Positions 1 through 23,198 of a stretch of 64,000 bases of DNA are shown here, in pieces. Below the pieces are notes generated by a model. It was not told where the DNA came from. It did not search any database and saw only the letters and a list, made by a program, of their open reading frames with translations. How positions within the stretch are numbered: position 1 is the stretch's first letter; each line of letters begins with the position of its first letter. Source of the stretch: a virus; the IMG/VR virus record IMGVR_UViG_3300046501_000233, positions 44,081-108,080 of that record. One strand, written 5' to 3'. Both the position numbers and the translations under genes were made by a program.

Positions 1-1193
1 TGGAGGCTGAACGGCTTGTCCATGCGCGAGCGCTCGGCCACTTCGAGGCTCTCGTAGATCATGTCGGCCGTGCGACGGACCGACAGGTGAGCCCAGAGAG
101 GATCGGTGCTGGTGCTGCGGACGCCCCAGAAGCGGTAGCCGTCGTCGTGGATGACCGTGGTCACCTGCGCGGCGTTCAGCATGTTCGCTTCGCATTCACG
201 ATCGTTGATCATGAAGTCGACGGGACGGCCAGGGCCGCCGATGTTCTGGATCGGCTCGTTGGAGAACGAGTACCAGAAGCCCTTCTCGTTATCGATGCGG
301 GCCTGGATGCCTGCGGCGTAGGCCGAGGCCGGCTTGTTCACGTAGAGCGAGTTCTCGGTATCCCACTTGAGGACGCCGGGATCGATCACGGAGACGCGCT
401 GGCTGCCGTAGTCGCCGCGGTACTGAACCGCATCGGCATAGTTGGTGCCGGGGCCATCCAGGAAGGCAACGGCGCGGAGGCGGCTGGTGATCGCCGACAG
501 GGCGACGCCGACCGGGTTCGCAACGCCGCCGAGGACTGCTCCAGCAGCTGCGTTCGTGCCTTCACCGGTGATGGTGACGGTCGGGGTGCCGCCGGTGTAG
601 CCGAAGCCAGGGTCGGTGATCGAGATGCCGGTCACTGAGCCGCCAACGACCTGAGCAACCGCCGTAGCGGTGCGACCGCCAGCAGCCGGGGCGCCGATGG
701 TGACGTTGGTGGTGGCTGCTACGTAGCCCGTACCAGGGGTGGTGACGTTGATGTTGGCAACGCCGTTCGTCGGGCGGGCGCCGGTCATGCCGGGGGCGAT
801 GAGCAGCTTCGGGATGACCCGGAGCATCGGGCGCGACTTGAGCAGCGACCAGATGCCGGTCTTGGCGGAAGGCGAGCCGACCGCGTTGGACCAGGTCTGA
901 GCATCCTGATTGGCGCCGGAAGCACCTTCGGCGACACGAACCACCACGACGGTGGCAGAGCCCTGACCGTAAATGGCGTCGATGCCGTCGAGCAGCGTTC
1001 CGTTGGTCTTGAGCTGGCCAGCCTTGAGCGTGTCAGCGAAGACAGGGACCGGCGTGTTCAGCGGGAACAGATCGGGGTCTGCATCCGGCGCGGTGCCGAC
1101 GAGGCCGATGACGTTGGACTTGACGGTCTGAACCGGACCGGAGGGGCTGTCGAGTTCGATCGTCTCGATGCCGTGAAGATAATTCGTAGCCAC
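1..1193 (-). CDS. Contractile tail sheath protein (runs off window edge)
   Basis: GTG at 1193 with AAGGAGA RBS. Translates MATNYLHGIETIELDSPSGPVQTVKSNVIGLVGTAPDAD..., a typical P2 FI-like sheath N-terminus. Not in the ORF track because it is truncated. Confidence 0.9.
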   Translation of the reverse strand, partial: MATNYLHGIETIELDSPSGPVQTVKSNVIGLVGTAPDADPDLFPLNTPVPVFADTLKAGQLKTNGTLLDGIDAIYGQGSATVVVVRVAEGASGANQDAQTWSNAVGSPSAKTGIWSLLKSRPMLRVIPKLLIAPGMTGARPTNGVANINVTTPGTGYVAATTNVTIGAPAAGGRTATAVAQVVGGSVTGISITDPGFGYTGGTPTVTITGEGTNAAAGAVLGGVANPVGVALSAITSRLRAVAFLDGPGTNYADAVQYRGDYGSQRVSVIDPGVLKWDTENSLYVNKPASAYAAGIQARIDNEKGFWYSFSNEPIQNIGGPGRPVDFMINDRECEANMLNAAQVTTVIHDDGYRFWGVRSTSTDPLWAHLSVRRTADMIYESLEVAERSRMDKPFSL

Positions 1194-1212
1194 GAAGTGG
1201 TCTCCTTGAAAC

Positions 1213-1240
1213 GAAAAAAGCCGCCCGGTGAGGGCGGCCT
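1213..1240 (-). terminator. Rho-independent terminator upstream of sheath gene
   Basis: GCCGCCC-tcacc-GGGCGGC followed by TTTTTT on minus strand. Confidence 0.75.
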
Positions 1241-1265
1241 TGGTGGTGGGTTGTTGGCGATGTGT

Positions 1266-1691
1266 TTACGGTCGAGAGATCAGTGGGTAGTGGGTCCACT
1301 TCTCTTGTCCGGGGACGATCGTGATGCCCCGCTGGACCGTGATGCTTCCCGACACGAGTCGGTAAATGCCATCGCCAGCAACGAGGACGATGTCATAGTC
1401 GTAGAGGCCGGGCGCCACTTGGGACGTCTCCGACATCTTGATCTGAAGTGCGAACTTGCCAGCAGCGCGGTCGGTGACCACGATCTTCTGATTGTCCGAA
1501 TTGATATTGGCAGCGACGTTGCCGTTGGAGTCCTGCATCTGCATGTAGAACTTCCAGCTGAGGTCGATGGCGAGAGGTTCGTCATCCTTCTTCAGCTGAT
1601 ATTCTCGGCTCCAGTCTTCATTCGTCGCCGCATTAAAGGCATCCAGAATAACATCCGGAGGCGAGTCGATCAGAGAGACCGTGATGCTCAT
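1266..1691 (-). CDS. Virion-associated hypothetical protein (Ig/BppU-like beta fold)
   Basis: 141 aa, GxYxYDIVL motif, ATGA-coupled to upstream gene in the tail module. Confidence 0.55.
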   Translation of the reverse strand: MSITVSLIDSPPDVILDAFNAATNEDWSREYQLKKDDEPLAIDLSWKFYMQMQDSNGNVAANINSDNQKIVVTDRAAGKFALQIKMSETSQVAPGLYDYDIVLVAGDGIYRLVSGSITVQRGITIVPGQEKWTHYPLISRP

Positions 1692-2305
1692 TCCGGTGCT
1701 GGCCTTAGATCCGGGAGAGCTTCTTCAATCTCACCCTTCGTCGTGATCTCGCCGCTCTGGATGCGTCCCTGCACTTCCTCTTCCAAATCGAAAAGGTTCT
1801 GCACATATGCCACGATCTCCTGAGAGATCGCGACGAACAGCGGGCGGGTCAGCGACAACCAGCCGCCATTCGCCTTGAAGCGGATGGGCTCCTGGGCGAT
1901 GCCAAGATCGATTGACTGGATCGCCTGCGCGATAATCGCGCGGGTGTCTCGATCCGTATCCAGCGCGCCGAAGTTCGGGGAGACCATGCCACCAACCTCT
2001 CTGTCATAACGAACCGATGCAAGGTGAGCCATGAGCTGCTCCTTTGTAGGAGCTTCCGGCGACGCGACTTCGAGGATCTGAACGACCGTCCCTTCGACCC
2101 GCTCGTAGCGAGATCCGGTGACAACCATTTCAGGATTGAGAGGGCGCTGGGCAGGCTCGACACGATAGACGCCGACACCCGCCAACTCCTGATCACTCCA
2201 TAGTTCAGTGATCTGCCAGGCATGTGTTACATCCTGGGCTCGGATCGATGATCCGTAAGGCACATCGATAAACGTGCCGTCTTCAAGCTCTTGTGCGATG
2301 AGCAT
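1688..2305 (-). CDS. Tail fibre assembly/chaperone-like protein (DUF4376-like C-terminus)
   Basis: 'RYDREVGG...LDTDRDTRAII...FKANGGW' pattern; position downstream of fibre genes. Confidence 0.65.
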   Translation of the reverse strand: MLIAQELEDGTFIDVPYGSSIRAQDVTHAWQITELWSDQELAGVGVYRVEPAQRPLNPEMVVTGSRYERVEGTVVQILEVASPEAPTKEQLMAHLASVRYDREVGGMVSPNFGALDTDRDTRAIIAQAIQSIDLGIAQEPIRFKANGGWLSLTRPLFVAISQEIVAYVQNLFDLEEEVQGRIQSGEITTKGEIEEALPDLRPAPE

Positions 2306-2308
2306 TTA

Positions 2309-3262
2309 TTATCCCCATGAGGTGTAACAGGCACCATTGCCGCCCCAGCCGCCACCAGTCCGAGAAAGACCGGCGTTGTCGTATGGGTCTCCGCCCGGTC
2401 CACCGCCTTGCCCGACGTTGATGATAAGGCGGGTGCCCGGCGTCAGAATGCCACGAGCAACGCTGCGATACGCGCGACCGCCGTAACCACCAGGTCCCGA
2501 GTAGACATCGTTCTCCCACGCATAAGTGTACCCGCCAGCGCCGCCGCCAGCGCCGCCAGCGTAGACGTTGCCGTCACCGCCTTGAGCATTGCCGTGACCG
2601 CCACCGCCGCCGTTGTAGAATGATCCGATGCCGCCGGAGATGCCGTAGTACGAGGCACCACCACCGCCGCCAGCCCATCCGATGACGTTGACCTTGCCGC
2701 CGCCGGTTTCCTCGTCATAAATCTGCGAGTAGCCACCAGCGCCGCCGGGGTTGGCGTTAATCCAGCCGGGCGGAACACTAGAGTTGTATCCCAACGGGGA
2801 GCCACCACCTCCGCCAGCTCCGTACACATCGAAGTTGAACACGCTGTGGTACGGGATCGTGAGAGCGTACTGCCCCGGAGACCCCCATGAGGCGGACCCG
2901 CCTGAAACGGCGACAGTCACGACGTACCAAATCGCGTTGGCCTTTCCGACCGTCACCGACATGGATGCCGTGGCGCTGAAGGTGTTCGAAGAGGTCTGGC
3001 GTAACTGAATACACTGACCCTTCTTGATGCTTCCGAAGGTCGACCAATCCTGAATGACTTGCGTCTGGGTGGCGTCCAAGACTCTGAACTGGCCGGTGTT
3101 GACCGTCACCGGAACAGGAACACTGATGCCGGTGATCTGCACGATGTTCGAGGACTGGAGACTGTTCGGGGCCACGCCATTGAGCTGCGTGAACGCGAAC
3201 GGGTTCGGCATCATATCGATGTCGGCGCCGCCGATGCGCGCCTTCAGGAATGGCAACATCAT
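2309..3262 (-). CDS. Glycine-rich tail fibre/receptor-binding protein
   Basis: GAGGGGG and GGxGGxG repeats in the C-terminal half; TAATG coupling at 3262. Confidence 0.7.
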   Translation of the reverse strand: MMLPFLKARIGGADIDMMPNPFAFTQLNGVAPNSLQSSNIVQITGISVPVPVTVNTGQFRVLDATQTQVIQDWSTFGSIKKGQCIQLRQTSSNTFSATASMSVTVGKANAIWYVVTVAVSGGSASWGSPGQYALTIPYHSVFNFDVYGAGGGGGSPLGYNSSVPPGWINANPGGAGGYSQIYDEETGGGKVNVIGWAGGGGGASYYGISGGIGSFYNGGGGGHGNAQGGDGNVYAGGAGGGAGGYTYAWENDVYSGPGGYGGRAYRSVARGILTPGTRLIINVGQGGGPGGDPYDNAGLSRTGGGWGGNGACYTSWG

Positions 3263-4428
3263 TACGGTGTCACCTTCCATCCGGCAGCGATGACGTCACC
3301 GTTCCAGGCGCCAGCGCTAGTTACGATGACAGCGTAGCCATTGGCGGCAGTTGCCACCTCGGGAGCAGATCCACTTGGCCATTTGAACTTGGTATTCCAG
3401 CTCACCGTGCGACCGCCCGTGGCATCCTGAAGGAAGGCCAACTCAAACGGCGCTCCGTCCTTGAGGTTGGAGACGTCGATGGTGACGTTGCCAACAAGCG
3501 TGGCGCGGAAGCGAGCGCCGGTATTGGCGTCGATGGTCACAGCGCCCGTGATATTGCCAAGCGGCACCCACTTCGCTGCTTCCCACGCCTGATCGTTCGT
3601 GACGATTGCGGTGTTGGCCTTCGAGCGAAGCTCGGCAGCAGTCGCGGCGTTTCGCGTCGCGGTATTGCCAAGCTCAAGCGACGTACGGGCAACCGACTTG
3701 TCAGTCAGGCTGGCCAGATTGTCGGACTTGCCGAGGTAGTTCTCCGGATCCCAGACTTCCGCGCGATCGGCTGCCGCGATGGCAGCGTTTCGAGCAGCGA
3801 TCGACGTTGAAGCGTCGGCTCCCGTCTGCACTCGGTCAGCAGCAGTCTTGACCGCATCCGCAGCAGCGCTCGTGCGCGATGCGAAAGCATTGACGCGGGC
3901 GGCTTCGATCTGGGTCAAGTAGGCCTGAGCAGCCAGATTGGATCCTGCGGTTGCTCCGATCCACCAATCGTTGAAGGGACCGGGATTGCCGTAGATCGAC
4001 AGGATCGTGACCATCAGGGTTCCGGTCGACTTCTCGTAGGAAATCAGCCGGCCGATGGCGTAATCGGTGGCGTTCGCCTCGCGCGTGATGGCGACGAAGG
4101 GCGTCGGGGTAAAGAGGTCTCGCTTGACCTCGTCATTAATGATGAACGTGACGCTCTGGTCATTGACCAGCGTGCGTTCACTGTTCGACTCCGCAGTCAG
4201 GAAGCCCATCGCGGACAACTGCTGAATGCGCTGATACGCAGGCAGGATGGCGTCATTCAGACGCGCGAGCCCAACCAGACGAAGATCGTTGACCGCCGCC
4301 TCCCACGAAGGGGTGAAAGGCTCAAGGCTGCGGAGGCGAGTATCAATCACCTCCATAGCTTTGTTCAGACGCTCGGCGTCAAAATCTTCCGTATCCTTGA
4401 ACGTAAGCTCAGGGTAGCTGCTTGACAT
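3262..4428 (-). CDS. Tail fibre protein
   Basis: Ala-rich coiled region, 'NLASLTDKSVARTSLELG' fibre motif, C-terminal 'QDATGGRTVSW' domain. Confidence 0.7.
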   Translation of the reverse strand: MSSSYPELTFKDTEDFDAERLNKAMEVIDTRLRSLEPFTPSWEAAVNDLRLVGLARLNDAILPAYQRIQQLSAMGFLTAESNSERTLVNDQSVTFIINDEVKRDLFTPTPFVAITREANATDYAIGRLISYEKSTGTLMVTILSIYGNPGPFNDWWIGATAGSNLAAQAYLTQIEAARVNAFASRTSAAADAVKTAADRVQTGADASTSIAARNAAIAAADRAEVWDPENYLGKSDNLASLTDKSVARTSLELGNTATRNAATAAELRSKANTAIVTNDQAWEAAKWVPLGNITGAVTIDANTGARFRATLVGNVTIDVSNLKDGAPFELAFLQDATGGRTVSWNTKFKWPSGSAPEVATAANGYAVIVTSAGAWNGDVIAAGWKVTP

Positions 4429-4594
4429 CTGCAACCACTCCCGCTGCATTCATCGCATCGAGCGTCACCTGGTCGACCACATGGTGGTTGCCAGGCAGAT
4501 ACCAAAACTGGTGCAGCTCGAAGCGACCATTCAGCGTGACGTCGTAGCGGACGTCATCACCCGCCGGAGCGGGTTCAGACTTTTTGGCGGCCAT
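4409..4594 (-). CDS. Small tail-associated hypothetical protein
   Basis: 61 aa, AAGGA RBS, overlaps next gene. Confidence 0.55.
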   Translation of the reverse strand: MAAKKSEPAPAGDDVRYDVTLNGRFELHQFWYLPGNHHVVDQVTLDAMNAAGVVADVKQLP

Positions 4595-4627
4595 TGGATT
4601 GTCCTTGTGAGAGGAGGAGCTACGCGC

Positions 4628-6889
4628 TTAGAGCGCGTAGTCCTTCTGGAATGCGACGTGGAACAGCTTCTGGTTCGAAGTCGTGTCGATCTTCGTCATG
4701 ACCCGATACTGGGTGACGGAGGCGCCGAGGTTGAACACGTAGGTTCGCTCGGTGGAGCCATCGACAGGATCGATGACCGTGGTGGCGCTCGACGGATTAA
4801 CCTGAGTGGCGAAGCCAGCACCCGTCATCAGCTTGACTGCCGCGGTGTGGTAAGCCGGCTCCATGAACTCGTAACGCTCGATCACTCGGATCTGCGTCGA
4901 GGCCACTGGCAGCGTGCGGGTCTGCGTGATGTGCGTCGCGGTGATATCCGGACGCGACACGAGCACCGAGCTGTCGAGCAGGTTGATTGCCGCCTGACAG
5001 TCGACCGAACCGTTGAACACTGCGCGGAGCGGCAGCAACGGAGGAACCGAACCACCCTGGCCAAGCAGGTACTTCTCGGGCTCCTGCAGATTGTACCAGA
5101 TGCCGCCGACCTGGATCTCGTAAGAGAGGGTCGCGCCGGCCGGGACGATCGTGCCGGCGATGAGGTCGATGCCGAGGATGCCGCCGGACAGCTGCAGCGG
5201 AGCGAGCGTGACGACCTGTCGAGCCTGCTTGAACTTGCAGCGGTAGAGACGCATCCACAGATCGCGGAATGCATCGCCCTGCGCATATGCACCGTCCAGC
5301 ACGTAGAAGAACGTGCCCTGGGTGAACTGCTGGCCTGGGACCGTACCAACCCAGTGGTCGGCGGCGGTGGTCAGCACGAGTGCGTAACGCTTGCCGCCCT
5401 GCAGATAAGTCGGCTGCAGCGGGACCGTGGTCTCGGTGTTCAGCTTCATGTCTGCGCGGAGCAGCGTGGTCTCGGCGATGACCTTCTTCAGGTCAGGCAG
5501 GCCGAAATCGGAGACCTCGACGATAGCGACGTGGATCGAACCTTCGGCAGCGAGCCGCGTGATCCAGATGCCGACCGCGTCGAGCCACATGTTCTGGCCC
5601 TGGAGCCAGGTCTCGGCGATCTGGGCGCCCGTCACCGTCTTGGTGATGGTCACCTTGTCCCAATAGGGTTCGTCGTAGGTGTCGATCCAGATCTGCCGCA
5701 GACGGATCCAGTTGTGGCCTGGATAGTCGATCATGGTGATCGACTCGACCTCGTAAGTTTCGCCGTCGCGATAGAAGCGCGAGCCGCCGTCGTAGGCGCC
5801 CGTCTGCCACCAGAGGCTGTTCGAACAGACCGTAAATTCGGCGCCGTAGCGGATGCGCTGACGTGCAACGGTCCGCTGCACCATGTCGAAAGACGACTGC
5901 GAGTAAGCCGCGATCTGGGTTTCGGCAACGATGCCGCCCGACAGCAGCCAGGCTTCGCGGTCATAAGCCGGAAGCAGCATGCCGTTCTTGATGTTGGCGG
6001 CGGGATCGAGCGGGTTGAAGATCTGCAGAGCGGACGAGCCCTCCGCAGCGTTCGGCATACGAATGCCCTCTTCCACCTTCACATGCGACAACGGATCGTC
6101 GAGCTTCGACTTGACGTGATCGAGGAAGAAGTTGGCGCTGGAGTCGACTGCGGTTGAGAGAACACCGTTCTTCGCTTCCAGAACCGCGAGGCGCTGGAGC
6201 GTACGGCCGAGCGAAGCCTGGTCGGCCTGGCCCTGGTTGCCCTGAGCCTTGATGCCGGCGATGTCGGATGCGAGCGTCTTGATCTGGAAGCCGGCCGAGA
6301 CCTCAAACTCTTCCAAATCGACGATGCGATCTTCGTGACCTTGCACGCTGGGGAGCTTATTGCTCTCGACCATCGTGATGGTGTCGACACCAGTGGGGCT
6401 CAGCGTCACCAGTGCGATGATCGTGTAGCCTACGTCGACCAGCGGTGCGGTCGGATCCGGCGCTTCCGTGCCGATCATGACGTTCAGGTTGGCGATGCGC
6501 GAATGCACCATCGGCACAGCCTGCGGCTCGGCCTGACGGGTCTCAGCGTTGATCAGGAACTGGCGCGGACGAATATCGACGTCAGCTTCCGTGCCCCAGG
6601 TGACGATCGCCGCAATCTTCTTGCCGGCAACCGGCAGCTGCGTGATGAAGTCCTTGGACCAGCTGGTCGTGCCCGAGCTGTAAACCTTACCCGCCGAATA
6701 GAGCCGGCCAGTAGCGACCGAGATCTGCGTGACCGCAGACTTGGTTACGCCGAAGCCGGTGTATTTGGCGCGGTCCGTGATGCCGTCGAGAACGACGTGA
6801 TCCAGAGCCGCCTCGGCGAAATCCTGCAACGACGTGAAGTCGGTCGGATCATCGTCGATGTTCGGGTGAAAGATAATCTTATTTTCCAC
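4628..6889 (-). CDS. Large baseplate wedge/tail structural protein
   Basis: 753 aa with strong codon bias and AGGAG RBS; follows the gpI-like gene. Confidence 0.65.
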   Translation of the reverse strand: MENKIIFHPNIDDDPTDFTSLQDFAEAALDHVVLDGITDRAKYTGFGVTKSAVTQISVATGRLYSAGKVYSSGTTSWSKDFITQLPVAGKKIAAIVTWGTEADVDIRPRQFLINAETRQAEPQAVPMVHSRIANLNVMIGTEAPDPTAPLVDVGYTIIALVTLSPTGVDTITMVESNKLPSVQGHEDRIVDLEEFEVSAGFQIKTLASDIAGIKAQGNQGQADQASLGRTLQRLAVLEAKNGVLSTAVDSSANFFLDHVKSKLDDPLSHVKVEEGIRMPNAAEGSSALQIFNPLDPAANIKNGMLLPAYDREAWLLSGGIVAETQIAAYSQSSFDMVQRTVARQRIRYGAEFTVCSNSLWWQTGAYDGGSRFYRDGETYEVESITMIDYPGHNWIRLRQIWIDTYDEPYWDKVTITKTVTGAQIAETWLQGQNMWLDAVGIWITRLAAEGSIHVAIVEVSDFGLPDLKKVIAETTLLRADMKLNTETTVPLQPTYLQGGKRYALVLTTAADHWVGTVPGQQFTQGTFFYVLDGAYAQGDAFRDLWMRLYRCKFKQARQVVTLAPLQLSGGILGIDLIAGTIVPAGATLSYEIQVGGIWYNLQEPEKYLLGQGGSVPPLLPLRAVFNGSVDCQAAINLLDSSVLVSRPDITATHITQTRTLPVASTQIRVIERYEFMEPAYHTAAVKLMTGAGFATQVNPSSATTVIDPVDGSTERTYVFNLGASVTQYRVMTKIDTTSNQKLFHVAFQKDYAL

Positions 6890-13004: not shown

Positions 13005-13982
13005 TTAGGCGGCCAGCATGTGCTTGAACGCGACGATGCGGATCAGCTTGCTGTCGTACACGCGCTCCCAGTTCGTGCCGGTGGCGAGTTCAGCGTTGGT
13101 CGGCGTGACGCCGGCCGAGCTGCCCTTCCACTTCACGCCGCGGGGGTGCATGACCCACTGGCGACGGTTCACGATGTACTCCTGGCCCATGCCCTTCAGA
13201 GCCTGGCGCTCCACTTCGACCGGCACCTTCGGCGACTTCTCGCCGTAGCCGATCGCGCCCTGACCGAAGATGTAGGTCGTGAACACGCGGGTTGCGCCCG
13301 CGCCCGACACCGGCATGCTGTCATCCTCGATGACGGTCTTGCCCATGTAGGTCGGGATGGTGAGCTTGCCCTGGCTGTCGGCCACGTAGTCGATGAGGTC
13401 AGCCTTGACCATCGCCTTCAGGGTCAGCGAGTGAACGGCAACGCCGGTCAGGCCACCCTGCTCGTCGCCGAGCAAGAACGCCGAGTCGATGAACGAGTCA
13501 GCATCGAAATACTGAGCGCCGCCGGTGCCGGCCGAGATGTCATTGACGTTCGCAGCCATCGTAGCTGCGCCCATCGCGCCGGCCAGCGAGGCGAGCAGCG
13601 CCTTCTGGAAGCGGATGTCCCACCAGGTGGCGAAGCGGTCAGCGATCGCTTCGATCGGATCGGCGCCGGACAGGTCGGCCGCGAGGTCCGACGTACCGAA
13701 TGCCTTACCGCGCAGCAGCTTCACTGCCACGTCCTGGCCGGTCGTCATACGACCAACGGTCAGGTCAGCGGTGTCGTCGAGCACGACTTCGGCGTCCTCG
13801 GAGTCGAGGTCGTTGAAGAAGGGCATGTTGACGGTCTTGCCGGCGATTTCGGCGTCGATCGTCGAGGTCAGGTCGGTGATGATACCCGACTGGAAGAGCC
13901 GCGACTTCTGGGTCGTCAGCGTCTGGACGTAGTTGTTGAACTTGGTCGGGACAATCATGTCCGCGAGACGGGTCTCAGTCAT
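13005..13982 (-). CDS. Major capsid protein
   Basis: 'TRLADMIVP...SRLFQSGI...VNMPFFNDL...DLAADLSGADP...HPRGVKW...ELATGTNWERVY' coat protein signature. Confidence 0.92.
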   Translation of the reverse strand: MTETRLADMIVPTKFNNYVQTLTTQKSRLFQSGIITDLTSTIDAEIAGKTVNMPFFNDLDSEDAEVVLDDTADLTVGRMTTGQDVAVKLLRGKAFGTSDLAADLSGADPIEAIADRFATWWDIRFQKALLASLAGAMGAATMAANVNDISAGTGGAQYFDADSFIDSAFLLGDEQGGLTGVAVHSLTLKAMVKADLIDYVADSQGKLTIPTYMGKTVIEDDSMPVSGAGATRVFTTYIFGQGAIGYGEKSPKVPVEVERQALKGMGQEYIVNRRQWVMHPRGVKWKGSSAGVTPTNAELATGTNWERVYDSKLIRIVAFKHMLAA

Positions 13983-14023
13983 TTCTCACTCTTGAGGTTC
14001 TGACTGGCCTGACCCCTGAAACG

Positions 14024-14052
14024 CAAAAAGCCGCCCCCGAGGGAGCGGCTTC
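14024..14052 (-). terminator. Terminator-like hairpin between scaffold and capsid genes
   Basis: AGCCGCTCCC-TC-GGGGGCGGCT followed by TTTTG on minus strand. Confidence 0.7.
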
Positions 14053-14077: not shown

Positions 14078-14962
14078 TTAGTCTTCGACGCCGGCTTCTG
14101 CCTTCAGGCGCTTGGCCAGTTCTGGTTTGGTGTTTTCGAGCAGCATCTGCTGCGTGAAGTTCCGGCTCTCTTCCTTCCAGGGGTTCTTTTCCTTGGAAGC
14201 AGGAGCGCCGTGGTTGGCCGGCTTGACGCCGATGCCGCGCTTGTCGTCGGGCTTGAACAGTCCAGCCCGCGTCTCGCGGATCTCACCAAGGAGATCTGCG
14301 ACCGAAACTGGGGTGCCCAGGTGGTCCTTGATCCGGGGATTGCCGTTGGCATCGATCACGTCCACCTTGATCTGCCCATCGACCAACGAGGTCTTGATGG
14401 ACTTGGTGGCGATCATCTCGATGGCTTCGCGCGCATCATCCAGCGGATTGAGTTTTGCAAGTTCATCCTTGATGGCGTTGTCGCGCATCAGAGTCTGAAG
14501 CTGCCCCGTGAGGCTGCCGATCGTCTTCTCCGCGCCGGTGACCTTCTGGGTCAGCTCGGTCTCGCGCAGAGTGAACTGCTGAGTGAGCTGGTCCTTGAGG
14601 GTGCCGAACTTGGTGTTGGCGATCGCTTCAGCTTCTTTCTCGGGATCGAGTGCTGACAGTCGTGCTGCAGTTTCCATGGCGGTGCGAGCCGCGTCCGGAG
14701 TGATGTCACCGAAGGCCGTAGCACGCTCGATGGCGGTGCGGGCGACGGTGGGATCCAGGCCTTCGAAAGGCTGGAGCTGCGCCTTCAAGACTGAAACGCT
14801 CTGGCGCTCGGCGCCGAGGGCGGTCTTGAGACCGGTGACATTGTCGAGTTCGAAGCCTTCGACCGGCGTTACGTTGACATAGAACTTCCCGTTCCGTTCG
14901 ACGTAAAACCCGCGATGCGCTTCATCGACGGTGTTGAGATCAGTAACGACTGCTTTAAGCAT
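14078..14962 (-). CDS. Capsid scaffolding protein
   Basis: MLKAVVTDLNTVDEAHRGFYVE..., coiled-coil middle, C-terminal 'NPWKEESRNFTQQ...PELAKRLKAEAG'; directly upstream of capsid. True start is probably 14962, not 15310. Confidence 0.85.
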   Translation of the reverse strand: MLKAVVTDLNTVDEAHRGFYVERNGKFYVNVTPVEGFELDNVTGLKTALGAERQSVSVLKAQLQPFEGLDPTVARTAIERATAFGDITPDAARTAMETAARLSALDPEKEAEAIANTKFGTLKDQLTQQFTLRETELTQKVTGAEKTIGSLTGQLQTLMRDNAIKDELAKLNPLDDAREAIEMIATKSIKTSLVDGQIKVDVIDANGNPRIKDHLGTPVSVADLLGEIRETRAGLFKPDDKRGIGVKPANHGAPASKEKNPWKEESRNFTQQMLLENTKPELAKRLKAEAGVED

Positions 14963-15318
14963 ATCCATCCCGGAAATGCGGGGCATCCCGCCCCTCGTAG
15001 AGAAAAGACCTTCAGCATCCCGCCGAAGGTCCGGTGTCATCCCCGAGGTTCGGGGAATCGGTAGAGACAGCACTGATCGTTCCAAGGGCCATCCCGGCTC
15101 TCGGTTGGTTTGATCAGCGATGTCGAATTGGTGCGTAGGGCCGGAGACGATCCAGCACCTACACGGTAGGTTCTCAGCGGCGGCGCGGGCGTGCGACGCG
15201 CTCTTTAGGCATCCCTGCTCGTCTTGGTGGAGTGCGAGCTGGGACCGCTGAAGTCGCGCTCGACTGGTGGCACCCAGGAGCGCGAAAAAGAGAGGGCCGC
15301 TTCGCCGCATCCCGCGGC
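14961..15318 (-). promoter_or_regulatory. Structured 5' leader with repeated GGGAU-loop hairpins
   Basis: CATCCC on + strand at 14966, 14984, 15016, 15038, 15090, 15210 and 15308; five copies sit at hairpin tips. Confidence 0.7.
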
Positions 15319-15324
15319 AGAAAC

Positions 15325-15357
15325 GAAAAAGCCCGCCGCGAATGAACGGGGCGGGCT
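15325..15357 (-). terminator. Rho-independent terminator
   Basis: GCCCGCC...GGCGGGC followed by TTTTT on minus strand. Confidence 0.7.
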
Positions 15358-15379: not shown

Positions 15380-15691
15380 TTATGCAGCGCTGCGCAATGC
15401 CTCGGGCTCGATCACCGTGTACTGGGTGAAGGTCTCGGGCTTGCAAAATTCTATGATGCCGTCCTCGTGGAGGAGGACGATGTCTCCTGCGATGCAGGAG
15501 AGGATGCCGAAGGGGGAGAGCGTCGAGAACCCGCCCTTGTTGTTGATTTGCAGCTCACCCGACTGGATGCGCTCGATCAACCACTGCGGCGGCGTGTCGT
15601 CAGCAATCTGACCCCAGAGAGGCAACTTGAAGGCTTGGACAATCGAAAGTCGTTCGAGCAGCTTCACGGGCACTCCATTTGCATTCTGCAT
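15380..15691 (-). CDS. Hypothetical protein (probable start GTG 15667)
   Basis: 'GDIVLLHEDG...CKPETFTQY' pattern seen in many phage small proteins; GGAG before GTG 15667. Confidence 0.6.
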   Translation of the reverse strand: MQNANGVPVKLLERLSIVQAFKLPLWGQIADDTPPQWLIERIQSGELQINNKGGFSTLSPFGILSCIAGDIVLLHEDGIIEFCKPETFTQYTVIEPEALRSAA

Positions 15692-16245: not shown

Positions 16246-17814
16246 TCAAACCTCGCGCGTCGGACGGCTCTGGCCGTTCGGGAAGTCAAACGTCTTCTTG
16301 GCCGGAGCGTTCCCTTCTGTGTCGCCCGCTTCAGCGTCTGGGTGCTCGATCGTTGTCTTGGCGCCGGGGTCCGACGTCAGTTCGCCGGACGAGATCAGCG
16401 CATCGACCTTGGACCAGAACGCGATCTCCTCGTCCTTACTGAACTCGGCGCTCAGCAAGTTGCGATTGACCATCTCGTCCAGCAAGACCGGACGGGAGAT
16501 GCCGCGCTTTTCCCAGAGCTTCACGAGCTGGGCGATCTCGGTGATCTTGTCCTTGGTGTTCGAGAACTCCGTGTTCAGTGCGACCGTCACGTTGCTGTAA
16601 TCGGCGCCGGTCCACTGGCTCATGAACCGGATGGCCTTCTCGATCGTGTCCTGCGCATTGATCGCCATATCGTGGACGACCGAGTGGACTCGGGTCTCCT
16701 GGATGTCGCGCTCGTTCTGCGGCACATACTGGCGGTGCGTGCCCGTGACCGGGTTCAGCGCCATCATGTCCATCTGCATTTCGAGGGCGTTGAGATCCTT
16801 GAAGCCGGACTCGATCGCAGTGCCCTTGGGTTCGACGTAATACCAGCGGCCATTGGCCTCGGGCGCGTAGAGCACTTTCCAAGGGCCGATCTCGAAGCCG
16901 GTCTGATCGTCCGGGTCGATCTGCACGCCGGAGCACGCCAGCATCGGGAAGCGGGCGGCCGACAGGATCGAGCGCTGATCCGACGTCGAGATCCAGTGCT
17001 CGATCTGCTTGTAGGCCAGATCGATGAACACCGGACGCACGAGATAGTCGGCTTCCTTTTCACCGGCATAGAACGTGGCGAACGGCACCTCGGCCATTTC
17101 GATCGGGGTCTCTTCGATAAAGTCCCAGTTCGAACCGCCGGACGTCGCCTTCTGCTCCCAGAGCTGAACGATGCCCTTGGTGCTGCCGGGGTCGACCTCG
17201 ATCACACGCATCTGGTTGTAGAGGACTTCCTTGAAGCCTTCACGCGCCGAGCGCTGACCGCGGATGCGGACGTGGACAGTCTTGGTGTCGCCGCCGACGT
17301 ATTCGTCATAGGCAGCCGCCACGTCGTCCACCTTGTAGAGCTTCATGAAAGGACGAGCGCCGGACTGCTTCTGCTCGGCGAGGTTCTTCATGTTGAAGGT
17401 GTCAGGGTGATCGACCAGGACGTGCGACATGCCGTCCAGAAAGCCGTTGTTGAACATCTGGTGGGCAAAGACGTGCAGGTGATTGCCCTGCAGATCGATG
17501 TCCTGCTGCCACAGGTCGAGATCGGGCGTTGAGTTCGTGAGCTTGAGCAGCGTACGGAACGGCTTGGCTGACGCAGCGTCCACAGCCTCGCGCAGCTTGT
17601 TCAACGCGAAGGTCGAAGCGAGCCGCGCATTGTAACGCAGGTCGCTCTCCTTCTCGTACTGCGGAAGGAAGCTCTTGCCCTGCGCACGCATGGTCTCGGT
17701 GCCGCCATAGACGGCGCGGAGCATCGCGGTGCGCTCCCGCATGGTGGCGGCTGCCGAAGACAGTTCGCCGGGATTACCCGACTGTGGAGACGGGGTGTAA
17801 ACGATATCGACCAT
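16246..17814 (-). CDS. Portal protein (DUF4055-type)
   Basis: 'GGTETMRAQGKSFLPQ..ES..Y.ARL', 'DIDLQGN', 'DLAYKQIEHW..TSDQ' signature; follows TerL. Confidence 0.9.
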   Translation of the reverse strand: MVDIVYTPSPQSGNPGELSSAAATMRERTAMLRAVYGGTETMRAQGKSFLPQYEKESDLRYNARLASTFALNKLREAVDAASAKPFRTLLKLTNSTPDLDLWQQDIDLQGNHLHVFAHQMFNNGFLDGMSHVLVDHPDTFNMKNLAEQKQSGARPFMKLYKVDDVAAAYDEYVGGDTKTVHVRIRGQRSAREGFKEVLYNQMRVIEVDPGSTKGIVQLWEQKATSGGSNWDFIEETPIEMAEVPFATFYAGEKEADYLVRPVFIDLAYKQIEHWISTSDQRSILSAARFPMLACSGVQIDPDDQTGFEIGPWKVLYAPEANGRWYYVEPKGTAIESGFKDLNALEMQMDMMALNPVTGTHRQYVPQNERDIQETRVHSVVHDMAINAQDTIEKAIRFMSQWTGADYSNVTVALNTEFSNTKDKITEIAQLVKLWEKRGISRPVLLDEMVNRNLLSAEFSKDEEIAFWSKVDALISSGELTSDPGAKTTIEHPDAEAGDTEGNAPAKKTFDFPNGQSRPTREV

Positions 17815-17832: not shown

Positions 17833-19296
17833 TTACCAGTCAAGGATCACGGCGCGACGGGGGCCGAGCAGCGAGTTGAATGCGTCAGACGCGGCATCGA
17901 CCTGGTCGTCGTTGACACCGAGCGGGAATAGCTCCAGCTCGTCGAGGAACGCTTGGTTCCAGCTGCCTCTGACCAGTTTGACGTTTCGCGCTTCGCACTG
18001 CGCCGCAAATGCGGACGCTCGCGTTTCTTTCGGACCCGTGGGACGGATTGCCTTGACGTTATAGCCGGCGAGCCGGCGGATGAAACTCTGGGCCTGGCTC
18101 TTGCCGGCCTGACCTGGATCTTGCGGAAGGAAGATCTGCGTGGAGCGACCGTCCTCTGCTGCGGTCGAGAAGACCTTTCGCTCGACAGCCAGCGGCGTGT
18201 CGCGCATGCGGATGACGTTCTCGATGTAGAAGATGCCAGCAGAGTCCTTGGACATCTTGACGCCGACCGTGTAGTCGCCGTCCTTCGATGCCGCGAGATC
18301 CCAAGCCCGCACGACCGATCGCTTGGCCGGCAGCTCATTCACGATCTCGAACCACGAGGCCTTGAACATGCCGCCGTCGTCGGACATCGGCTTCTGCTGA
18401 TAGAGAGCCGCAAACGACCGCTCGCCGAGAACGTCCTGACGATCCATCAGAGCGGCGTAGGAGAAACGGTTGGGAGCCAATGGCTCGTTCGGCATGCGCC
18501 GCAGCGGATCGCCGGGCACCGTGCCGTCATCGTTGAGGATCAGCTCCTTGGTGCCGTCTTCCTTGGTGATCGACTTGGTGTACGGGAGCGCCGGCAGATA
18601 CAGGATTTCCCAGGGGAGACCCTTGCCGTCGTTCATCAGCTCGATAAGGCGGCCGGCGATGTCGTCGTAGTGCCAGCGCGTGAGCGTGAGCACGATTGCC
18701 GCGTCTTCTTCGAGACGGGTGTAGACGACGTCTCGATACCAGGCCCACTGGTCTTCGCGGAAACCTGGCGACTCCACTTCCTTTCGATCCTTGATCGGAT
18801 CGTCGATGAGGAAGAGATGGGCGCCCTTACCGGTCGTGCCCGAGCCGACGCCGACCGCGTAATACTGACCGCCCTGCTCCAGCTGCCAATCGTCTGCGGC
18901 GCGCTGGTCGGTTCGGATACGGACATCGGGGTAGAGCGTTTGGAACTGCTCGCCCTTGATGATATCGCGGACGTTACGACCGAAGCCGGTGGCGAAGTCG
19001 GCGTTGTATGAAGCCGAGATGACATTCTTGTGGGGGTTCCGGGCCATGTAATAGGCCGGGAAGCGGCGGGTCGACAGCTCGCTCTTTCCGTGCCGAGGCG
19101 GCGCGAAGAGCATCAGACGCTTGATTTCACCCCGCTCAACAGCCTCAAGCTTCTTCGCCACGATGTGGTGGAAGGGATCGGCGTAGTATTTGGGGAGCGT
19201 GTAAGTGGTGAAGTCGATGAGGTTTTCGCGGCCACGACGGCGATGCAATACCTCGGCTGCCGCCGCCTCGGGTGAGACGTCGGTGAGATCGAGCAC
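17833..19296 (-). CDS. terL: Terminase large subunit
   Basis: Walker A 'PPRHGKS', 'LIDDPIKD', 'TRWHYDD', nuclease 'AWDLA' and 'NDDQVDA'. Confidence 0.95.
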   Translation of the reverse strand: MLDLTDVSPEAAAAEVLHRRRGRENLIDFTTYTLPKYYADPFHHIVAKKLEAVERGEIKRLMLFAPPRHGKSELSTRRFPAYYMARNPHKNVISASYNADFATGFGRNVRDIIKGEQFQTLYPDVRIRTDQRAADDWQLEQGGQYYAVGVGSGTTGKGAHLFLIDDPIKDRKEVESPGFREDQWAWYRDVVYTRLEEDAAIVLTLTRWHYDDIAGRLIELMNDGKGLPWEILYLPALPYTKSITKEDGTKELILNDDGTVPGDPLRRMPNEPLAPNRFSYAALMDRQDVLGERSFAALYQQKPMSDDGGMFKASWFEIVNELPAKRSVVRAWDLAASKDGDYTVGVKMSKDSAGIFYIENVIRMRDTPLAVERKVFSTAAEDGRSTQIFLPQDPGQAGKSQAQSFIRRLAGYNVKAIRPTGPKETRASAFAAQCEARNVKLVRGSWNQAFLDELELFPLGVNDDQVDAASDAFNSLLGPRRAVILDW

Positions 19297-23122: not shown

Positions 23123-23198
23123 TGGCTGGGAAGGCAGGACTCGAACCTGCGACTCTCTGATTAACAATCAGGCGCTCTACCAACTGAGCTACAACCCA
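23123..23198 (-). tRNA. tRNA-Asn(GTT)
   Basis: TAGCTCAGTTGGTAGAGC D-arm, anticodon loop TTGTTAA, GGTTCGAGTCC T-arm, G-CCA end; two U-U mismatches in acceptor stem. Confidence 0.88.

Follow-up and report, generated by a model that had tools for sequence, protein, structure and literature searches.

The stretch of DNA described here (the window, 64,000 nt) belongs to a virus record of 108 kb that is complete and carries terminal repeats (IMGVR_UViG_3300046501_000233), and the element in question is the leader of its head scaffolding protein gene, in which hairpins with the loop C-GGGAY-G (Y being U or C) are repeated ahead of the start codon. On the minus strand the gene order is TerL (17833-19296), portal (16246-17814), an open reading frame (ORF) of 103 aa (15380-15691), a gap of about 420 nt, scaffold (14078-14962) and major capsid protein (13005-13982). 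The nearest cultured relative, Bradyrhizobium phage BDU-MI-1, has the identical gene order. The scaffold was assigned to phrog_206 (E 1e-35), with the profile alignment starting at the MLKA N-terminus. A 410-aa ORF running from 15310 was tried as coding sequence and rejected; its first 114 codons are without homology, and 14963-15331 is therefore regarded as a non-coding leader. The 5' limit of the leader is the intrinsic terminator of the 103-aa ORF (15332-15350, minus strand), recovered in the terminator scan, and a further terminator-like hairpin lies between the scaffold and capsid genes (14020-14046, minus strand). Since terminators separate the most highly expressed head genes, readthrough or antitermination is implied in late transcription.

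The hexamer GGGATG occurs 43 times on both strands of the window, the same as in shuffled sequences. Seven copies lie on the minus strand within 348 nt of the leader (14966, 14984, 15016, 15038, 15090, 15210 and 15308), for which about 0.1 would be expected on one strand (Poisson P(≥7) = 1.6e-11, or ~6e-9 corrected for all such intervals). These positions had been listed in an earlier sequence-only reading of the stretch and were borne out by the count, as were the five GGGAU-loop hairpins named there, which fold individually as described (about -8.0 to -18.2 kcal/mol); the two other copies are inside stems. The leader as a whole folds at -175.5 kcal/mol (z -4.4). All hairpins are given for the minus strand, beginning at the gene. 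Hairpin E (14959-14979, GCAUUUCC-GGGAU-GGAUAUGC, -8.0 kcal/mol) carries its GGGAU loop at 14971-14967. It is preceded by hairpin D (14980-14994, GGGGC-GGGAU-GCCCC, -9.1 kcal/mol), the stem of which is invariant in 26 of 26 relatives, with U or C at loop position 5. Hairpin C (14996-15032, the hairpin itself 15006-15032) has an 11-bp stem, a C-GGGAU-G loop and a conserved U-run, and was flagged as terminator-like (-18.2 kcal/mol, z -4.2). Hairpin B (15038-15056, UCCCCGA-ACC-UCGGGGA, -11.3 kcal/mol; 98.9% of cells paired in 26 relatives) reads AUUCCCCG...CGGGGAU, and the GGGAUG copy at 15043-15038 forms its 3' arm, paired with AUUCCCC, and not a loop. In the minimum-energy fold an extended hairpin A (15066-15124) bears the core CCGAG-A-GCC-GGGAU-GGC-C-CUUGG (15082-15104, -11.4 kcal/mol) on an outer stem of 12 bp. 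The 5'-most hairpin (15303-15319, UGCCGC-GGGAU-GCGGCG, about -10 kcal/mol) has a GGGAU loop specific to the window, the relatives showing a hairpin with another loop at that position. The whole 108-kb phage genome contains only six GGGAY-loop hairpins with at least four uninterrupted pairs, three of them in the leader; none of the others, which were sought as a possible regulon, precedes another gene. The array of this phage is thus confined to the scaffold leader.

The start of the scaffold gene lies within this array. One AUG (AUG1) is at 14968-14966 and a second (AUG2) at 14962-14960, where it is paired in the 3' arm of hairpin E. The only sequence resembling a Shine-Dalgarno (SD) sequence for the scaffold start is the GGGA at 14971-14968 in the loop of hairpin E, 6-9 nt before AUG2, and other genes of the phage use SDs of the GGAG/AGGAG type. 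The last hairpin had been proposed to occlude the ribosome-binding site by enclosing the SD and part of the start codon. The occlusion and the enclosed SD hold, and the codon has to be corrected, as the 3' arm contains the whole of AUG2. In hairpin D, GA ahead of the 5' arm gives a GAGG SD-like sequence, and an AUG stands in the loop at 14986. This AUG, which thus has a good SD and is in frame with the scaffold in most relatives, would add MPRISG(MD) at the N-terminus. It was considered as the scaffold start and rejected, being out of frame in the related loci L077 and L094, where a 1-nt insertion in hairpin E leaves it at the head of a 14-codon upstream ORF overlapping the scaffold start. L077 is also without AUG1, and the conserved scaffold start is therefore AUG2.

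Relatives were collected as 28 IMG/VR loci and two Bradyrhizobium prophages found by a scaffold-protein search, together with BDU-MI-1 and two later variants, and reduced to 26 distinct leaders; their scaffold proteins are 62-73% identical. At the nucleotide level the last 45 nt before the gene and its first 8 codons (block -48 to +25) show almost no variation, and the sequence further upstream is variable. No promoter was found within this invariant block by a scan or by inspection. In the named structure, hairpins A-E, 96.7% of cells are paired in the 26 leaders. Compensatory changes affect 14 of 35 pairs, against 5.1 ± 1.5 in shuffles (0 of 500 reached 14) and 1-7 in slid controls. They include six of eight core pairs in hairpin A and six of eight counted pairs in hairpin C; hairpins D and E are too invariant to give a covariation signal in this family. 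Hairpin E is unchanged in 24 of 26 relatives and has a structure-preserving variant, UCCC-GGGAY-GGGU, in L077 and L094. The U-run of hairpin C is kept throughout the family. Over the 104 loop hairpins of the family (A, C, D and E in 26 leaders) the closing C-G pair and GGGA are invariant, and position 5 is U or C in 103, with a single A. The alignment of related leaders, which had been suggested as a check, thus agrees with the sequence-only reading in that the loop and its closing pair stay fixed on stems that change in a compensatory manner. The array of seven sites proposed there is reduced by it to four sites conserved as loops (A, C, D and E), as the copies at 15038 and 15210 belong to stems and the loop of the hairpin at 15304-15318 is not shared by the relatives. 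The stems contain many G-U pairs, as expected of sense-strand RNA and not of a site in DNA.

The same loop was found before head genes of other phages. IMG/VR was scanned for three copies of CGGGAYG at leader-like spacing, and then for two copies of GGC-GGGAY-GCC within 2-32 nt. The first scan yielded L040, in which the portal and scaffold-like proteins have no blastp similarity to those of the window. In its portal-to-scaffold gap, four C-GGGAU-G hairpins stand downstream of a consensus sigma-70 promoter. The first of them has a U-tail, and the start codon, preceded by an AAGGAG SD, is enclosed in the fourth. The second scan gave at least 120 stretches, as opposed to 15 for a control loop of the same composition (GGGYA); part of them are coding Gly-Gly-Met-Pro repeats, and the rest are non-coding pairs or arrays with varied stems. 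When copies were classed by open frame only (non-open meaning that none of the frames stays open across ±150 nt), the fourth pair of the stem, which is outside the search pattern, was complementary in 105 of 149 non-open copies (chance 0.375), and the fourth and fifth pairs were both complementary in 69 of 149 (chance 0.14). Arrays of 2-5 copies with unrelated stems precede head-module genes in at least 26 other phage lineages. Most stand before scaffold genes (phrog_206, 2303, 1793 and 194); others stand before genes for a protease (phrog_80), the major capsid protein (phrog_10 and 283), terS (phrog_51 and 309), or a ParB/methylase heading a packaging operon. At 50% identity the genes behind the arrays fall into 26 clusters, and by BLAST they make up 16 unlinked groups. 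Arrays stand ahead of both the scaffold gene and a terS-like gene in one contig, and ahead of both scaffold and capsid genes in another. Counts over whole records place the 9-mer GCGGGAYGC on one strand only (8:0, 8:0 and 4:0).

The distance from the first G of the last loop to the AUG falls into three classes. In seven lineages it is 3 nt, so that the AUG is within the loop with the SD just 5' of it, and the proteins start with Met-Pro because of the GCC arm. In four lineages it is 10 nt and the loop is the only SD, and in thirteen it is 20-26 nt and the hairpin adjoins a canonical SD. Of the window's own hairpins, E falls in the 10-nt class, and D resembles the start-codon hairpins of the 3-nt class. 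A 30S subunit bound at a start codon is generally taken to cover roughly -35 to +19, and the last loop is always within the span of mRNA usually covered in this way. A U-tailed GGGAY hairpin occurs in only 2 of 26 arrays of other lineages, so termination is an addition specific to certain lineages and not the core function. A 56-kb provirus (L197, genome G006) has, at ~1080-4845, a replication-initiator gene, a GGGAY array, a head protease gene and an HK97-type capsid gene, with no scaffold-family match among the ORFs scanned there; this could be a compact head module or a satellite that encodes a capsid. In Pseudomonas phage PaMx11 (L271) and in Epa5 (L273) two conserved hairpins with pentaloops GAGAU and GUGAU/GUGAG lie ~60 nt before the scaffold start, ahead of the SD, and may represent a related G-N-G-A-Y loop variant. 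In L198 the GGGAY pair before terS is immediately preceded, at 2357-2474, by a tRNA and by a match to abiF RNA that, at 32.4 bits, is below the gathering score of 37. Tandem 9-nt repeats of the GCGYGGGAT type, present in many copies at L034 112-208, L046 2638-3238 and L081 3317-3479, are unrelated to the leader arrays.

The upstream part of the leader contains two further structures. The first is an element of ~115 nt (15172-15287, minus strand), conserved in 20 relatives, with helices P1-P4 and a long-range closing stem; the consensus fold of 20 sequences has 33 pairs, 7 of them compensatory. It matches no Rfam family. P1 has a tip of variable length and contains CGCUCC, which bears only a loose resemblance to boxA. 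The GGGAUG at 15215-15210 is the 3' arm of P3 and not a loop. It is specific to the window, where the compensatory change of CUC/GAG in the relatives to CCC/GGG creates the GGGAU at 15210. The apical loop of P3 reads AUCCCGC in most relatives, the exact complement of GCGGGAU, and CACUCCAC in the window. The second structure is a tRNA-like minihelix (15129-15164, minus strand; -21 kcal/mol, z -4.4) consisting of a 7-bp acceptor-like stem and a 6-bp stem with a 5-nt loop, followed by ACCA. It resembles the acceptor stem and T-arm of a tRNA. A tRNA-Asn(GTT) occupies its position in the leaders of 12 relatives, about half (L001 4100-4175 and 11 other loci), and L027 has a longer tRNA-like version there; the tRNA-Asn of the window itself is at 23123-23198. 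The presence of a tRNA or tRNA-like element suggests processing of the leader by RNase P. The 103-aa ORF between the portal gene and the leader is kept in relatives and has no match in PHROG or Pfam.

Searches for a known RNA family gave no relevant match. With Rfam 15 the leader was searched at E up to 10, the window at gathering score and six other motif-bearing loci at E up to 1, and TwoAYGGAY, ROSE and PhotoRC were among the families without a match. This search, like the alignment, had been recommended in the sequence-only reading, and its outcome agrees with the suggestion made there of an undescribed cis-regulatory RNA. No description of GGGAU or GGGAUG hairpins in phages was found in the literature, where the hits were confined to primers and other unrelated matter. 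Candidate antisense sequences elsewhere in the phage, which could act in trans, were limited to 7-mers at chance level.

An invariant 7-nt loop and closing pair on stems of free sequence, present in multiple copies, restricted to the sense strand and placed within the span of the 30S subunit, is typical of hairpins that proteins recognise, and the placing of the SD or AUG within the last hairpin points to translation initiation as the step controlled. There is on this basis about an even chance that the 3' 150 nt of the leader are a multivalent cis-acting translational operator built of repeated C-GGGAY-G hairpins. A trans-acting factor would recognise the loop and its closing pair and bind several hairpins simultaneously. 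Its binding would stabilise or cover the hairpin with the ribosome-binding site and so set the rate at which translation of the head genes is initiated, and the upstream copies A and C would raise occupancy, either by cooperative binding or as a local reservoir. Several results weigh against this operator. No binding partner was found. All-versus-all blastp of six-frame ORFs, with crude ORF calling, detected no protein common to this phage (G000) and the motif-bearing phages G003, G004 and G006, the scaffold and portal being the only proteins to link three of the four; the factor is accordingly more likely to be a host component, or a small and fast-evolving phage protein, than the scaffold. 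In two host genomes arrays were as frequent as a reversed-pattern control, apart from the prophage leaders, and single motifs were 1.4-fold over control, so that a global host regulator with many host targets is not evident. Eight cultured phages with phrog_206 scaffolds (PaMx11, Iggy, Epa5, Kpn2-P2, PHB10, Medea1, R5C and Xp15) are without arrays, and the element is therefore not required by the scaffold family. The scans fixed GGC/GCC stems and a GGGAY loop, so that the sampling of loops outside the Bradyrhizobium family is biased towards this form. The ribosome itself could be the partner, since GGGA occupies the exact place of the SD in hairpin E and in some lineages.

This last possibility, a ribosome platform independent of any protein, in which the GGGA loops are weak SD-like standby sites, kept single-stranded close to a structured ribosome-binding site, that catch the 30S subunit, the last one is the real SD, and head proteins are highly expressed as a result, is considered unlikely. 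It would account for the leaders in which the loop GGGA stands 7-10 nt before the AUG without any other SD (hairpin E and four terS or ParB leaders), and standby sites are considered important where, as here, the start codon is enclosed in a hairpin; neither a common phage protein nor a host regulon was found, and the genes served include the most abundant virion proteins. However, the pairing of GGGA with the anti-SD at the 3' end of 16S rRNA amounts to only 4 bp, one of them G-U, and it leaves unexplained both the strict GGGAY and C-G invariance in the family and the absence of loops of the GGAGG type. Moreover, the other genes of the phage have ordinary SDs, and thirteen lineages have a canonical SD after the hairpins anyway. 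Autogenous control as in P22, in which free scaffold would bind the loops and repress its own translation until relieved by procapsid assembly, is quite unlikely. The idea that the array senses free scaffold had been put forward in the sequence-only reading and is weakened, as autoregulation by the scaffold may operate in this phage but cannot explain the arrays in general. In its favour, the array of this phage is found only in the scaffold leader, most arrays elsewhere also precede scaffold genes, and the N-terminus of the P22 scaffold has been implicated in translational autoregulation (bioRxiv 10.1101/2022.12.13.520362). The parallel with P22 extends to a scaffold gene of a tailed phage and to the control at translation proposed here. 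It fails where arrays precede terS, ParB/methylase, protease and capsid genes, sometimes on the same contig as a scaffold array, and in G006, where the array is followed by protease and capsid genes. The scaffolds behind arrays span at least four PHROG families unlinked by BLAST, and the cultured phages of the same scaffold family do without arrays. We know of no operator hairpin that has been defined for the P22 scaffold.

Control at the level of the transcript, through nut/boxB-like loading of an antiterminator, attenuators, or elements of processing or stability, would meet the need created by terminators between head genes, and is given only a small chance. The terminator-like hairpin C with its conserved U-run, the terminators that flank the leader and follow the scaffold gene, and the RNase P processing implied by the tRNA or tRNA-like element speak for it. 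So does the likeness to the boxB-N (nut) systems of lambda and P22, which also have a GC-rich stem of ~5 bp (5-6 bp here) of free sequence, a fixed purine-rich pentaloop starting with G, and a phage RNA read by a protein, as is proposed here. The boxB loop, however, adopts a GNRA-like fold and ends in A, whereas the present loop ends in U or C in 103 of 104 family hairpins, and boxB is present once per nut site beside boxA, early in operons and without a fixed relation to a start codon. The quantised spacing to the start codon and the AUGs within loops would have no role in antitermination, and U-tailed hairpins are rare in the other lineages. Pairing between RNAs is very improbable; the partner of the GGGAU loops would be the AUCCCGC loop upstream, acting either in cis or within a separate small RNA that has its end at hairpin C. 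The exact complementarity of the P3 loop in most relatives supports such pairing, and 18 of 24 distinct relatives have ATCCC within the 600 nt that precede the scaffold start, but the window keeps its GGGAU loops with CACUCCAC in P3, and upstream of the arrays in the 26 other lineages AUCCC was counted 6 times in 7.7 kb, with about 7.5 expected. A regulator of the CsrA/Rsm type binding the GGA loops, also named in the sequence-only reading, is almost certainly the wrong explanation. GGGAUG does resemble the core of the CsrA consensus obtained by systematic evolution of ligands by exponential enrichment, and the leaders bound by CsrA and RsmA-RsmE and the CsrB/RsmZ sponges likewise have several GGA-loop hairpins, here A, C, D and E, of which one overlaps the SD (here E), with multivalent binding implied; the closing C-G pair is that of the RsmE-hcnA site. 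The CsrA/Rsm site is, however, a hexaloop, A-N-GGA-N, whereas the GGGAY pentaloop sits directly on the C-G pair without the 5' A, and the present hairpins were found before phage head genes, with no host regulon evident. The CsrA family (PF02599) has no match in the complete phage genome or in five other motif-bearing records (G003-G007), and only sub-threshold matches in two Bradyrhizobium genomes harbouring related prophages. CsrA is not the factor.

Other known systems are alike in part. The coat-protein operators of MS2 and PP7 are also loop-specific hairpins that include the start region of a gene, where binding of a protein blocks initiation; they are single hairpins of single-stranded RNA phages with other loops and a bulged A, whereas the present hairpins form arrays in double-stranded DNA phages. 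The ROSE thermometers of Bradyrhizobium, the same host genus, are 5' leaders of several hairpins of which the last masks the SD and AUG. They serve heat-shock genes, have no repeated conserved loop and, as said, gave no Rfam match here. The TwoAYGGAY motif of Rfam similarly has two adjacent hairpins with identical GGA-containing loops. Its loops are AYGGAY, and cmscan gave no match to it in the leader or in the six other motif-bearing loci. The ANTAR target consists of two hairpins with hexaloops having A at position 1 and G at position 4, unlike the 5-nt GGGAY loops described here.

To our knowledge, little is known of how tailed phages control the amounts of scaffold, capsid and terminase beyond the case of the P22 scaffold. 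A short, easily recognised RNA signature that recurs before the head genes of dozens of otherwise unrelated phages provides a concrete handle on this question, as it can be mutated or used as bait for its partner. It may also help to mark out head modules and true start codons when metagenomic phages are annotated, and it is a further candidate family among the cis-regulatory RNAs of phages. A wider interpretation, which is tentative and somewhat doubtful, is that the arrays are the operator of an RNA-binding factor, host-encoded or a tiny phage protein, that coordinates the translation of terS, scaffold, protease and major capsid genes across unrelated phages. If true, this would be a Csr-like "head regulon" of phages, at least in a host genus in which no CsrA was found. 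If the partner is encoded by the host, a post-transcriptional regulator would come to light in Bradyrhizobium.

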